DNA of 64,000 nucleotides, taken from assembly GCF_053078305.1 (NCBI RefSeq), contig NZ_CP166879.1. One strand, 5' to 3'. Numbering within the stretch: position 1 is the stretch's first letter; every line of letters starts with the position of its first letter. Made by a program: the position numbers. Shown here piece after piece: positions 45,001 through 51,000 of the stretch.

Positions 45001-48000
45001 GATTCAACGGCTTTTTCTTCCATTAACATCAGTGGGGGAAACTCGCGCGTTAAACTCTCAGGAGATAATCAGATTATACCTGATAATGTTTCCTGGGGAT
45101 TCCGGGGTGGATATTTAGATATAAACGGAAAAAACACAGAGTTCTCCCGCTTACAGGCTGTTGATTATGGGGCTGCAATTATTAACAGCAGCACAGAGAA
45201 GTCATTATTGACGTTAAATCTGTCACCATTGAAAAAAGATGAAATAGCTGTGAGCGTGAAGGCGTTAGATATGAACGCCATCTTTCATGGAGGATACGGG
45301 ACAACCGGCGATTTGTATAAAACAACTTTTTACGGTCCGACACAGTATTATCTGCTGAAAAAGCCCAAATTTGGCAGTGTGCTGATGGGGTCACTGAAAA
45401 ACACCAGCGAATGGCAATTTGCAGGAACAGACCTGAATCAGGCCGTTGATATGGCAAAGAATAATAAACTGACATCAAGTGCACAGGCTTCATATCTTTA
45501 TCACGGTAAGCTCCTGGGGAATATGGATATTGTCATTCCGGAGCTTACAGGCAATGATATTTTAACGCTTGATGGCTCTGTCAGTATATCAGGAGATATG
45601 TCAAAACAGGACGGTGCTCTTATCTTCCAGGGACACCCGGTTATTCATGCAGGGCAAACTGTTTCTGCATCGCAGAGTGACTGGGAGAACAGGGAGTTCT
45701 CACTCAACAATCTGAATCTTAATAATGCGGACTTCAGTCTGTCCCGTAATGCATTTATGAACGGGAATATCAGGGCCGTTAACCAGAGCACTGTTATTAT
45801 CGGCGGAGATACAGTCTTTACTGATAAAAATGACGGAACAGGTAATGATGTCATCAGTGTTGAAGGGAAATCTGCTGCCGCAGGAACATCCTCCTATACA
45901 GGGCATATCACTCTGGAGCAAAAATCAGCACTGGATATCCGCGATAATTTTCGTGGCGGGGTTACGGCTGAAGACAGTCATATCAATGTTTCTTCATCTT
46001 CAGTCCTGTTCTCAGATGCATCGTCATTTATAAACAGCTCCCTGAATATTCATAAAGGAGGAGCGCTGACCGCTCAGGGAGGGCTGTTTACAAGTGGAAG
46101 CATTGATATTGGTGACGCTTCCCTTCTGCTTACCGGTACACCAGTGAATTCAGATGATGCTGCTTTTTTACCGACCATCAATATGGCTGATGGCGGATTT
46201 AAACTGATGTCTGATTCATCAGTACTGAAAGCCAGAGACCAGGCATCTGTTGTTGGTGATATTATTTCTGATAAACAGGCCACAATCAGCTTCGGAACTG
46301 AATCAGGTAAAGAGGGCATATTGTCTGAGAAGGCATCCCGGGGAGTTGCGGTCGGATTACTGAGTGGTTTTAATACGGCATACCGCGGTGCAATTCATGC
46401 CCCGTCAGCATCTGCCACTGTGAACAACACCTGGTGGCAACTGACAGGAGACTCCTCACTTCGCTCGTTAAAAAATACCGGAAGCATGACATATTTTACA
46501 GGAAGTGCAGCGAATAAAGCATTCCATACACTGACGGTTGATGAGCTGACGACGAATGGCACTGCGTATGCCATGCGTACGGACCTGAAAAATGCGGATA
46601 AGCTGGTAGTAAACCAAAAGCTGTCAGGTAAGGACAATATTCTGCTGGTTGATTTTCTGAACAAACCCACCGGAGAAAAACTGGATATTGAACTGGTGAG
46701 TGCACCGGGGAACAGCAGTAAGGATGTTTTTAAAGGAAGTGAACAGGCAATAGGTTTCAGCAATGTCACGCCTGTTATTACAGCTATAGACGCCGGAGAT
46801 AAAACAACATGGAACCTGACCGGGTACAGGATGGCAGAAAATCCTGCCGCAACCCAAAGTGCCTCAGGCCTTGCATCTGTGGGGTACAAATCATTTTTGA
46901 GTGAGGTCAACAACCTGAATAAACGTATGGGTGACCTGCGTGACATCAATGGTGAAGCTGGCGCATGGGCACGTATCATGAGCGGAACCGGCTCTGCCGG
47001 TGGTGGTTTCAGTGACAACCACACACATGTTCAGGTCGGTGTCGACAAAAAACATGAGCTGGACGGACTGGATTTGTTTACCGGCTTCACTGTCACACAT
47101 ACTGACAGCAGTGCCTCTGCTGATGCTTTCAAAGGTAAAACAAAATCTGTGGGGGCCGGACTCTATGCTTCCGCCATGTTTGATTCCGGTGCCTATATCG
47201 ACCTGATTGGTAAGTATGTTCATCATGATAATGAGTACACCGCAACCTTTGCCGGACTCGGAACCCGTGATTACAGTACGCATTCATGGTATGCCGGTGC
47301 TGAAGCAGGCTACCGCTGTCATGTCACTGAGGATACCTGGATTGAGCCACAGGCAGAACTGGTTTACGGTGCTGTATCCGGTAAACAGTTTGCATGGAAG
47401 GACCAGGGGATGCATCTGTCCATGAAGGACAGGGACTACAATCCGCTGATTGGTCGTACCGGTGTGGATGTGGGTAAATCCTTCTCAGGTAAGGACTGGA
47501 AAGTGACAGCCCGTGCCGGTCTGGGCTACCAGTTCGACCTGCTGGCTAACGGCGAAACTGTATTGCGGGACGCATCAGGTGAAAAACGTATCAAAGGTGA
47601 AAAGGACAGCCGTATGCTGATGTCCGTTGGCCTGAATGCAGAAATCAGGGATAACGTCCGCTTTGGACTGGAGTTTGAGAAATCCGCCTTTGGTAAGTAC
47701 AACGTTGATAATGCTGTCAACGCTAACTTCCGTTACTCGTTCTGATACTCCGTATTCAAAAGGGCCTGAGGGCCCTTTATGCTCAGGACCTGCCGCCCGG
47801 GTATACATTTCCGGGGTATCAGTCGATTTGTTTACTTAACCGCCATGACCAAAGCCGGCAGCAATGTCGGCTTTTTACGTCCATATATTCCACTTATCCG
47901 GAACTGTGACACAGAACCTGAATACAGGATTGATCACCGGTGCCCACAAATGGCACATTTTCAGTAAGATTCTGAATGTTACATTCCCCCTTCATGTGTG

Positions 48001-51000
48001 ACACAGCTGTCACAGAGAACGAAACGGAAAGCACATGAAAAACATAAAAACTCACACCGGACTCCTTATCCACAAAGAACAAACACGGCGCGTTCGTCTT
48101 CATGAAACACCGGCCGCCTGGTGCCACACACGCCGGGAATGCTACAGCAAAACGACCGGTCGTCGCTGCGGCAGCCCTGACAGTCTCAGCAGGCTGATTC
48201 TGAGCAGCATTCAGCCCATAGAATGAGATAACCCGTATGAATGATGACAGACGTCTACGGTACCCGATGTATGGAACATTTGCTTTCTGGCTAACGGCAT
48301 GCCCGACACATGGTTTTACACCGATGACGCCTCCGTCACAAAAGAGTGGGGGCGGGAATATTGTGACAATGTGGAAGTGTTCCCTCTGTGCTATATGCAT
48401 GACGGTCCCGTTTTCCGGGGGCGCTATATTGATGAGCTCAGCGCCGCACGGAGCAGAATGCTCCATATGCACCACATACTGCCGGAACGAACCCGGTACA
48501 GAGAAAATATCCATGACGCAGAATGTATCCGTGAAATTCACGAAGCGCCCCTGCAGGCTCCCGGCATTCTGCAAAAATACAAACGCACAAAATCATAAGG
48601 CTGTTCTATGTGGATACTGATTTTCTGGCTCTCATCCCCCTTTAATGTCTCCTCCGGCGATGCCCGGCAACCCACACTGGCCGTTCACAGTCAGGAGTTC
48701 CGTACTGAAAAAGCCTGTCGGGATGCCTTCAGCGCGCTGAAAAAAGAAAATGTGGGAGAATTCGCTCTCCGGGGCGTCTGCGTCCCCGGCGGAGAATAAA
48801 CCGGAGATGATGATTCTCCACAGGAGTATTCAATGGCATACCATTCCCCGGATGTCACACTGCATTATCCGTATCTGCGCCGGATGTCCTGGGCGCAGAT
48901 AACGGCAGCAGCTGAAGATGCGGAAATACATCATGATTATGCCCGGGCATTAATATTGTGGCAGCATGCATATCATGCTGCCACGCTGACTCTCAACAAA
49001 AACCTGGCAGTTGCTAAAATCGACTTCTGTATTAAACGTATCCGGATGCATGAACAAATGAGCAGGATAATCCGGAAGACTGGCACAGACGAAATACTCT
49101 TCCGTCTGAGTAAACACCATCATTTATATGAGAAAAAGAAAACAAAAGAGGGGTGAGAAACCCATTGTATGGGGAAAACTTGCCATGCTCACTGCGGGGG
49201 CATTTTTGTACTGGCTGTTCTAACCGGGTAACCCGTTGATACACATAGTACAATAATGTTTTATGCAGGCTTACGCGCCAGACTGCCATCAGTAGTGCAT
49301 TGCGTGCCAGCTCGCGGACAGGGGCAGTGACCAGCCACCACATGAGTAAGCATCATTTCAGCGCCATCAGGCAGCTCCTGAAACTCCTGCGAGTTGAAAA
49401 AGCATCCTCCTGCATTAGCAATACTGGCTTGTCAGTGCCAGTGTGATATAAGACGTAATGTCAAAGTTCGTGGTGTTGACATATTTCTGTCGCAACCAAA
49501 GTATGCTCCCGCCCAGTATATATCTGGGCAGGAGCATCATTTATTAGTTCTTTTTCCTGTCGGGGCCAAAACATTCTGTCGATGTGGCGCAGGTTGATAA
49601 CCCAACAAGGGCATTGGACGTTAATGCCTTCACAAAGGGCGGATACGTCCATACCCCGGGTTCATAATAAATCCTGACCAACTGACCTGTTGTGTAAAAA
49701 TATAGTGCCTGATTATATAATGTGGAAAACGAAGGCCCCCAGACAGATGAATTCTTCATCGAGCAGGCACTTATGGAAGAACCACCAGGTTGTTTCCCTT
49801 CAATACAAAAATAAGGGTTATTATCTATTTGCCCTGTATGAAACTGATCAATAACAACGCCTGAAAACATGCCATCCCGGGCATCGCCAGTCCACTCAGC
49901 CATGGCAGGATTAAGGGATAAACATCCCATAACACCTGCACATACAAAAAACCTCTTAATCGTCATATTCACCTCCGGAATTTTACAGTTCTTCACTCAT
50001 CCTTCCCTGACGGACAGGAATATAATTTTTCTTGCAGAACATGCTAATTGCTTTTTCTGCATTAAGAACTCTCCCTTCCGTCACCTTATCTGCAAGTGAG
50101 GGGTATTTGTCTGCAGACTCCAGCAGTGTACGCTTCAGTTCTGTCGCTGTTGCACGGGGATTACATGAGACCATCGCTGCCAGAACGCCGGAAACTATAG
50201 CTGTTGCTTCCGAGGTTCCACTACCGATCCCCGTTTTTCCATCTGGTCTGAGGAATGTAATATTCTGTCCCGGTGCGGCAATATCAACCCAGCCGTTTCC
50301 GAACCGACTTCCGGTGACCCCTCCACCATGCAATACAGGTGTTTCTCCTTTCCGGTACTGTGCCAGAGCTGCCACTCTTATCACAGGATCCTGCTTTTTA
50401 TTCACACTGCTGACCGGATGGTAAGCCGCAGGCCATATTCTCTGCTGAGCACTCAGTTTTCGTATATCTGCGCCATCATTACCCACTGCCGCAACAATTA
50501 ATCGCTCATTATTCCGGCCCATACGGGAAAGCAGTTCGGACCAGACCGATGCGGAAGATATCCCCTTCTGGCCTCCCGATATATTAATGATTTTCTCTTC
50601 TCCTGGTGCAAGAAAAACATTTGACATAATGCTTTCAGTTGCTCTAATCCATGAGTCCTGTACACCGTCAGGAATAACCCTTCTGCTGGATATCAGTGCA
50701 TGAGGATAAACACCATAAACCTCATGACGTGAGGCAATGAGTGAAGCCATGGCAGTACCATGAATATATAAAGCTTCAGGCTCTTTTACCGGGAATGGCG
50801 AACCATCCTGAGTAAAACTGAATTTGGCAAATTCGCTGTCGCTGAGGCCTCCTACAAATGCCACTCCGGAATCAACAACAGATACGACAACCGGGGTATT
50901 TTTGTCTGTGAGCGACATGGTTGTTTCTGTCAGACCAATTGCATCAAAATACCATGGTTTTTCCGCCCTGACTGACACTGAGATAAAAAGCAGGAACAGA

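Follow-up and report, generated by a model that had tools for sequence, protein, structure and literature searches.

Which of the overlapping open reading frames (ORFs) between an autotransporter gene and subB are genes, and on which strand do they lie? The question arises in a 64,000-nt stretch of contig NZ_CP166879.1 (RefSeq assembly GCF_053078305.1), hereafter the window, where the interval is flanked by a gene for a 1363-aa serine-protease autotransporter of Enterobacteriaceae (SPATE; 43654..47745), named EspI by RefSeq in a 97.8%-identical genome, and by the minus-strand genes subB and subA. We consider it probable that the interval holds a plus-strand block of four genes (g0 to g3) from a plasmid backbone, captured along with the SPATE gene's 3′ end. 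In this block, g1 has decayed and g3 encodes a protein similar to the ANR regulators of pathogenic Escherichia coli.

Coding strand of the interval

All the ORFs listed in a preliminary description of this DNA were found, namely one of 226 aa on the minus strand and those of 127, 99, 63 and 107 aa on the plus strand, the 63-aa length occurring twice (Table 1). In 2000 first-order Markov simulations of the stretch, the number of ORFs of at least 60 aa was 5.0 ± 1.8, compared with six observed; 38% of the simulations reached six, and an ORF of 107 aa was present in 53%. Since the ORF count is within chance, we rejected ORF length and count as coding evidence. Only the 226-aa ORF is longer than expected (0.6% of simulations), yet this longest ORF is spurious, as described below, and ORF length is therefore misleading here.

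Table 1 Features of the interval between the SPATE gene and subB. dN/dS, ratio of nonsynonymous to synonymous substitution rates (Nei-Gojobori) of the window against plasmid copies L003 (85% identity) and L006 (70% identity).
Feature	Coordinates	Strand	Description	dN/dS, L003	dN/dS, L006
Plasmid-derived segment	46379..49221	.	SPATE 3′ (beta-domain) end and g0-g3; ~85% identical to espP loci of STEC plasmids		
Leader upstream of g0	47859..48034	+	Conserved; kept from plasmid backbone		
226-aa ORF	47894..48574	-	Spurious	1.05	1.32
g0 (63-aa ORF)	48035..48226	+	Basic, 7.3 kDa, pI 10.2, three conserved Cys	0.05	0.09
127-aa ORF	48237..48620	+	Spurious; stop codon in homologues	0.96	1.37
g1	48237..48598	+	Pseudogene of a 121-122-aa plasmid protein		
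g1 frame	48278..48598	+	Part of g1 used for dN/dS	0.54	0.19
99-aa ORF	48299..48598	+	In-frame g1 remainder		
g2 (63-aa ORF)	48608..48799	+	Hydrophobic N-terminus (MWILIFWLSS), two Cys; WP_000264907.1	0.15	0.08
g3 (107-aa ORF)	48833..49156	+	12.7 kDa, pI 9.6, helical; WP_000323314.1	0.39	not comparable
Terminator-like hairpin and T-run	49185..49208	+	29 nt after the g3 stop		

Of 5426 complete E. coli genomes, 400 contain the region, and a more sensitive blastn search located it in 990 plasmid records. Sister chromosomal islands (L001, L002, L008 and L011) are ~99% identical to the window, and the IncK2/Z plasmids L012 and L013 (pTA142-2 and G6/7) are 92-93% identical. The identity is ~85% on plasmids of E. 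coli that produces Shiga toxin (STEC), where the region lies downstream of espP (L003 and L014), and ~70% on other IncK/IncI plasmids (L006 and L007). In an eight-sequence alignment, the variable sites at codon positions 1/2/3 are 12/10/35 in g0, 33/31/62 in g1, 7/5/34 in g2 and 22/15/32 in g3, with the third position highest in each. The 226-aa ORF peaks at position 1 (116/53/58) and the 127-aa ORF at position 2 (35/72/37). With dN/dS of about 1 or above, both evolve neutrally. The indels in g3 between copies are 6, 6 and 12 nt, all multiples of three. Among 11 surveyed loci, g0 and g2 are intact in all, and g3 is intact in all nine that carry it.

These comparisons show four tandem genes in the order g0-g1-g2-g3, on the plus strand throughout, of which g0, g2 and g3 are intact and under purifying selection. 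The coding strand, which could not be decided by eye in the preliminary description, is thus given as plus by the comparative dN/dS data. The expectation of at least one small gene, for example at 48833..49156, is borne out by g3, which is real and conserved, and there are four genes in all; the alternative that no ORF would show homologues or a coding signal is contradicted by both the homologues and the dN/dS. In near-identical genomes, the annotation pipeline PGAP calls g1, g2 and g3, each as a plus-strand gene. RefSeq omits g0 in the island copies, and g0 is annotated on some plasmids only. The exact protein sequences of g0, g2, g3 and the 99-aa g1 remnant are recorded on 268 (g0) to at least 1000 contigs. 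A collection of 15 billion proteins lacks the 226-aa and 127-aa sequences, which are never called as genes.

The g1 gene is a pseudogene here and is independently inactivated in the sister islands. Just after its start codon, the window has GATGACAGACG at 48243..48253, whereas other copies have GATGACAGACAGACG: one GACA unit of the GACAGACA repeat has been lost within 48246..48253, and the seven copies that were aligned with the window all have the 4 extra nt at this site. This deletion shifts the frame after codon 5. The in-frame remainder is the 99-aa ORF, which PGAP extends to 106 aa (48278..48598). Six plasmids carry a full-length g1 (121-122 aa). Every one of the five island copies is broken, as is that of pSTEC401_1, and the lesion is the 4-nt loss or, in L001 and L008, a CGA-to-TGA change at 48488; L011 has an additional 1-nt indel. 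Since the inactivations in the sister islands are independent, g1 is dispensable in the chromosome. No family was found for g1 in Pfam, NCBIfam, PHROG or PADLOC, a PDB sequence search with the g1 family returned nothing meaningful, and its AlphaFold2 model is unusable (mean predicted local distance difference test score, pLDDT, of 50).

The 4-nt deletion also accounts for the two spurious ORFs. The 127-aa ORF consists of the true g1 start codon followed by the wrong frame that the deletion created. The 226-aa ORF, which lies opposite g0 and g1, is found only in copies with the deletion; copies without it have two antisense ORFs of 109-139 and 119-136 aa, which the deletion fuses. That the 226-aa ORF is the real gene, with the plus-strand ORFs as its shadows, is nominally favoured by its length and by two plasmid records that annotate short minus-strand ORFs at its place, but this reading is effectively refuted by its neutral dN/dS, its variation peak at codon position 1, its split into two ORFs in every copy without the deletion, and the lack of any family match, any record in the protein collection and any PGAP call in near-identical genomes.

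Since the gaps between the genes are short (10, 9 and 33 nt for g0-g1, g1-g2 and g2-g3), the only plus-strand terminator-like sites in a consensus scan flank g0-g3 with none inside (47940..47956, a hairpin in the leader, and 49185..49203), and the ATG of a g3 homologue on plasmid pDV45 overlaps the g2 stop codon (ATGA), we infer that g0-g3 form one transcription unit. The hairpin at 49185..49208 is its likely end. The leader, conserved with IncK plasmids, contains an inverted repeat, TGTGACA-CAGC-TGTCACA (47997..48003 and 48008..48014), about 20 nt upstream of the g0 Shine-Dalgarno region. This repeat is a possible operator; its spacing is unlike that of a CRP site. A strong terminator-like hairpin on the minus strand (49503..49537; 14 pairs, 9 of them G-C) lies directly downstream of the subB stop (ORF 49544..49996) and faces the g3 terminator across a spacer of ~300 nt. 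A search of 47600..49700 against Rfam at permissive E-values gave chance-level matches only.

For annotation, the interval should carry g0-g3 on the plus strand, with g1 marked as a pseudogene and with g0 added in the island copies, where RefSeq misses it; the minus-strand 226-aa ORF should not be annotated. Apart from the lead provided by g3, the region is ordinary.

Relation of g3 to the ANR family

The g3 start codon is preceded by an AGGAG Shine-Dalgarno sequence at a distance of 7 nt. The ORFs of the interval had been described as free of recognisable motifs. This holds for Pfam, with no significant match in a scan of eight ORFs, but not for g3, which matches the NCBIfam model NF033650 (ANR_neg_reg) with an E-value of 1.2e-6 and 28.2 bits and retains most of the published ANR signature residues. 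It was the only match in the NCBIfam scan, and g3 is the sole ANR-like ORF in the window. The PADLOC defence models gave no match, a PDB sequence search with g3 gave nothing meaningful, and word-indexed protein searches with g1 and g3 returned enterobacterial relatives only, with no informative names.

The relation is also seen at the level of the g3 family. An exhaustive profile search with g3 collected 23 cluster representatives, and the ANR model is matched by 12 of the 12 aligned members. Two of them, P0063 (41.1 bits) and P0072 (34.9 bits), pass the NCBI cut-off of 32 bits and match the g3 profile with E-values of 1.3e-14 and 1e-7. Alignment of the g3 family by hhalign with the validated Cnr-1 and Cnr-2 of enterotoxigenic E. 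coli (ETEC) H10407, whose genes were located from published coordinates (PMC4038620), gave a Prob of 85% and an E-value of 6.1e-6 over 52 ungapped columns; pairwise BLASTP in the same test gave an E-value of 0.002. P0063 and Rnr of Citrobacter rodentium are both 77 aa long, and we rejected their identity: according to published primers Rnr starts with MHQDIKEY (PMC10148876), and the location of P0063 is in an F-like tra region.

The ANR signature comprises A10, E14, A22, W26, A29, W43 and R47 together with a conserved Cys (PMC4983702, PMC4038620). Five of these seven residues are retained in g3 as A27, E31, A39, W43 and A46 (corresponding to A10, E14, A22, W26 and A29), and the conserved Phe-Cys is retained as F65-C66. 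Among the residues of Aar listed as corresponding to the signature is W45, the mutation of which abolished Aar activity (PMC4983702); it seems to be the equivalent of the signature W43.

In the AlphaFold2 model of g3 (mean pLDDT 79.8), helices span residues 20-32, 36-49 and 53-83, with no strands. The means of 10-residue blocks are 92-94 over residues 21-70, then ~80 and 67 over the rest of the third helix. Additional C-terminal helices at 85-105 form a basic extension. A Foldseek search of the model against the PDB returned only generic three-helix, MIT, TPR and 14-3-3-like matches with E-values above 0.1, with no ANR structure among them. Many GenBank records name g3 "flagellar biosynthesis protein FlgM", which would make it an anti-sigma-28 factor. 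FlgM is largely disordered when free, unlike the well-packed helical g3 model. No FlgM model of Pfam or NCBIfam matches g3 at E-values up to 1, ANR being the only family match, and RefSeq now labels the protein hypothetical. Its homologues in the IncI clade are labelled "neurotensin receptor R8", another implausible name and a sign that wrong annotations have propagated. Both names are unsupported, and a FlgM-type function is extremely improbable.

Relatives of g3 occur on mobile elements in several settings: in an F-like tra region, beside an ArdC/methyltransferase gene, after msbB2 beside the ehx genes hlyCA, and near a PerC gene. The branch as a whole is found on roughly 480 sequenced conjugative plasmids (mostly of the IncI complex), and its other locations are F-like tra regions, ArdC gene neighbourhoods and plasmids of the pO157 type. 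The homologue on pDV45 (L006 6788..7039) is an unannotated 83-aa ORF, whose 3′ end overlaps a convergent helix-turn-helix (HTH) gene (6989..7669, minus strand) by 51 nt. This IncI/IncK homologue is present on pDV45 and about 480 other plasmids and is unannotated in most records. Another homologue, P0061 (95 aa, 49% identical; L022 4617..4904), follows a glycosyltransferase/sulfatase/lipid A acyltransferase cluster and lies beside IS66 and hlyC/RTX-toxin genes, in a setting like that of the virulence plasmid pO157. In P0066 and P0059, the N-terminus of g2 or g1 is fused to the ANR-like core; these proteins presumably arose by deletions within the block on IncI plasmids.

Probable plasmid origin of the block and its capture in the island

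On the SPATE-free IncK2/Z plasmids pTA142-2 and G6/7 (~93% identity), the block lies in the transfer-region backbone in the order HTH gene (minus), nuc (plus), g0-g1-g2-g3 (plus), dqlB (minus) and trbA (plus). Plasmid pO104_H7 has espP, g0-g3, dqlB and trbA, and similar STEC plasmids also carry espP directly upstream of g0. On MDP9-27 (L003), nuc is upstream of espP, and on pDV45 the 70%-identical copy of the block lies between pnd and the HTH gene and nuc. The gene order within the block is the same across the plasmid copies compared (70-93% identity).

The limits of the plasmid-derived segment (Table 1) were set by blastn of positions 40000..53000 of the window against L003 and L005, and homology to the SPATE-free backbone of pTA142-2 starts at 47859. 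The SPATE gene is mosaic. Only its last ~1.37 kb, encoding the beta-domain, matches espP (~85% identity), in a homology that runs on into the block, and the DNA of the passenger part is unrelated. An intact gene is found here, and a split or truncated one in several sister islands (L001 and L008). Just past the right-hand break at 49221, a match of ~70 nt (82%) at 49250..49321 corresponds to one end of an ISEc15-like element of the IS3 family. Strains without subAB, such as L002, are identical to the window only as far as 49510, where a stack of insertion sequences takes the place of subAB and the 5′ part of tia.

Since homology is limited at 46379, 47859 and 49221, a piece of plasmid backbone and the SPATE 3′ end seem to have come into the island together. 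The block belongs to the backbone of conjugative plasmids of the IncI complex (IncI1, IncK2/Z and IncI-gamma), where nuc and dqlB/trbA flank it. An espP-type protease gene was probably inserted directly upstream of it on STEC plasmids, and recombination would then have moved the SPATE 3′ end and the block into the chromosomal subAB island, providing the beta-domain end of the present EspI gene. This documents, on the evidence of these homology limits, the probable capture of a plasmid backbone into a subAB island together with a mosaic SPATE gene.

The small proteins encoded by g0 and g2 seem to be accessory proteins of the kind found in the early regions of lambdoid phages. g0, annotated as WP_000751583.1 in the IncK plasmid L007, matches PHROGs 7520, 5148 and 1226 (E-values 1e-16 to 1e-18), all three of unknown function, and was found by tblastn in 103 phage records, mostly of Stx2a-converting and other lambdoid phages. 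g2, labelled hypothetical by PGAP, matches phrog_3766 (E-value 4e-13) and, by tblastn, the "EaD protein" of a Klebsiella phage.

The island has the order integrase, shiA-like gene, phosphoethanolamine (PEA) transferase gene, tia and subAB, and is a tRNA-Phe-associated element of the SE-PAI type (PMC7371111). In published descriptions, the ORFs discussed here are left as "hypothetical proteins". Only the 3′ 50 nt of tRNA-Phe are present (58680..58729), after the island integrase (57319..58503, minus strand); ARAGORN detected no whole tRNA in the window, and homology to genomes with the island at pheV stops at 58730. This points to a partial copy of the att type that is followed by another element or site.

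Possible action of g3 and comparison with known systems

ANR proteins bind the central region of AraC/XylS activators and also H-NS-family proteins (PMC4983702, PMC5570504, PMC10148876). By homology, g3 would be a helical protein that does not bind DNA and blunts H-NS-family silencers, AraC/XylS activators (at their dimerisation region), or both, and binding to such proteins is most likely its mode of action. Since no AraC gene is found in the native plasmid or in the contexts of its relatives, H-NS-type proteins would be the more likely target. We tentatively propose, as a possibility short of an even chance, that g3 belongs, with its relatives, to an ANR-superfamily branch on mobile elements that has gone unrecognised, which acts independently of a cognate AraC partner, for example by tuning the H-NS-family silencing of host genes or of the newly arrived element, and was co-opted for the control of virulence genes in subAB/EspI islands.

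Several observations weigh against the picture of a captured block with a functional ANR-like gene. The g3 score is under the NCBI cut-off for ANR. Signature residues W43 and R47 are replaced by L58 and K62. Described ANRs are proteins of 39-80 aa and 4.4-9.5 kDa (PMC4983702, PMC4038620), and g3 exceeds the <10 kDa range of the family, with 90 aa even when counted from Met18. In view of its size, we regard g3 as a divergent homologue within the ANR superfamily rather than a family member. None of its relatives on mobile elements has an adjacent AraC gene. With g1 decayed, the island can evidently do without at least part of the block. The island-lineage copies are ~99% identical, and the evidence of purifying selection concerns the history of the block on plasmids rather than its chromosomal copies. 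A promoter scan found no sigma-70-like plus-strand site upstream of g0. Finally, g3 and the AraC-family gene of the island are 6 kb apart on the same strand and on different recombination segments, and their proximity may be coincidental.

There are two other readings. The whole block may be an inert hitch-hiker, brought in with the SPATE 3′ end and unexpressed, with all four genes drifting to pseudogenes. The inactivation of g1 at least twice independently in island copies, the breakage of the SPATE gene itself in several sister islands, the result of the promoter scan and the similarity of the island copies, too high to measure selection within the lineage, are consistent with this reading. 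However, g0, g2 and g3 show no disabling change in the five island copies sampled, in which g1 has three different lesions, and both the native leader and the downstream hairpin are retained. We consider an inert block unlikely.

The other reading concerns the AraC-family regulator at 42001..42741 (246 aa), ~0.9 kb upstream of espI, which is the only AraC-type candidate in the island. It is closest to YdeO (176 bits; equivalog cut-off 348) and also resembles GadX and HilD; in L001 it is cut to 84 aa. As the single ANR-like ORF in the window, g3 could be a dedicated anti-activator of this regulator, in a feedback loop on espI like that of Aar with AggR, and ANR genes are typically near AraC activators and bind promiscuously, including to GadX (PMC4038620, PMC4983702). 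However, homology to plasmids starts only at 46379, which places the two genes on separate recombination segments, and plasmids without an AraC gene have this g3 after espP or nuc. In addition, the described ANR-AraC pairs are close and divergent, unlike the distant and co-directional pair here. A local partnership of g3 with the YdeO-like protein is possible, but since the genes lie on different recombination segments the pairing is probably fortuitous, and a dedicated loop seems quite improbable.

The ANR proteins are potent anti-virulence regulators in enteroaggregative E. coli (EAEC), ETEC, enteropathogenic E. coli (EPEC) and Citrobacter. If the captured block with an ANR-like g3 is the correct reading, the presence of g3 with espP or espI and in common IncI/IncK backbones would extend the ANR family to conjugative plasmids, and g3 would be a candidate modulator of H-NS or AraC-type regulators in STEC lacking LEE, the enterocyte effacement locus.

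Compared with the IncI-complex backbone of pTA142-2, pDV45 and pO104_H7, the block agrees in its four genes and in their order and spacing, but it is chromosomal, away from transfer genes and downstream of EspI, and its g1 is frameshifted. g0 and g2 are homologous to small early-region genes of lambdoid phages (PHROGs 7520, 5148, 1226 and 3766; "EaD"), which are likewise short and without known function; the context is a phage there and a plasmid or island here, and some of the PHROG families have the g0-like domain within longer proteins (121-216 aa). H-NST and T7 gp5.5, cited as functional analogues (PMC5570504), are small H-NS binders encoded by mobile DNA that disturb H-NS oligomerisation or its binding to DNA, and the action proposed for g3 would be the same; the likeness is a functional analogy only. 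The closest comparison is with the ANR family itself, including Aar of EAEC, Cnr-1 and Cnr-2 of ETEC, and Rnr of C. rodentium and EPEC. Like these proteins, g3 is small and, in its model, all-alpha with three core helices, and it lies on horizontally acquired DNA of pathogenic E. coli with an AraC-family gene in the same island. In contrast to them, it has an additional N-terminus of ~17 aa and a basic helical C-terminus of ~35 aa, and it is native to a conjugative-plasmid backbone without an AraC partner. While ANR genes are solitary and divergent from their activator, g3 is the last gene of a four-gene block.

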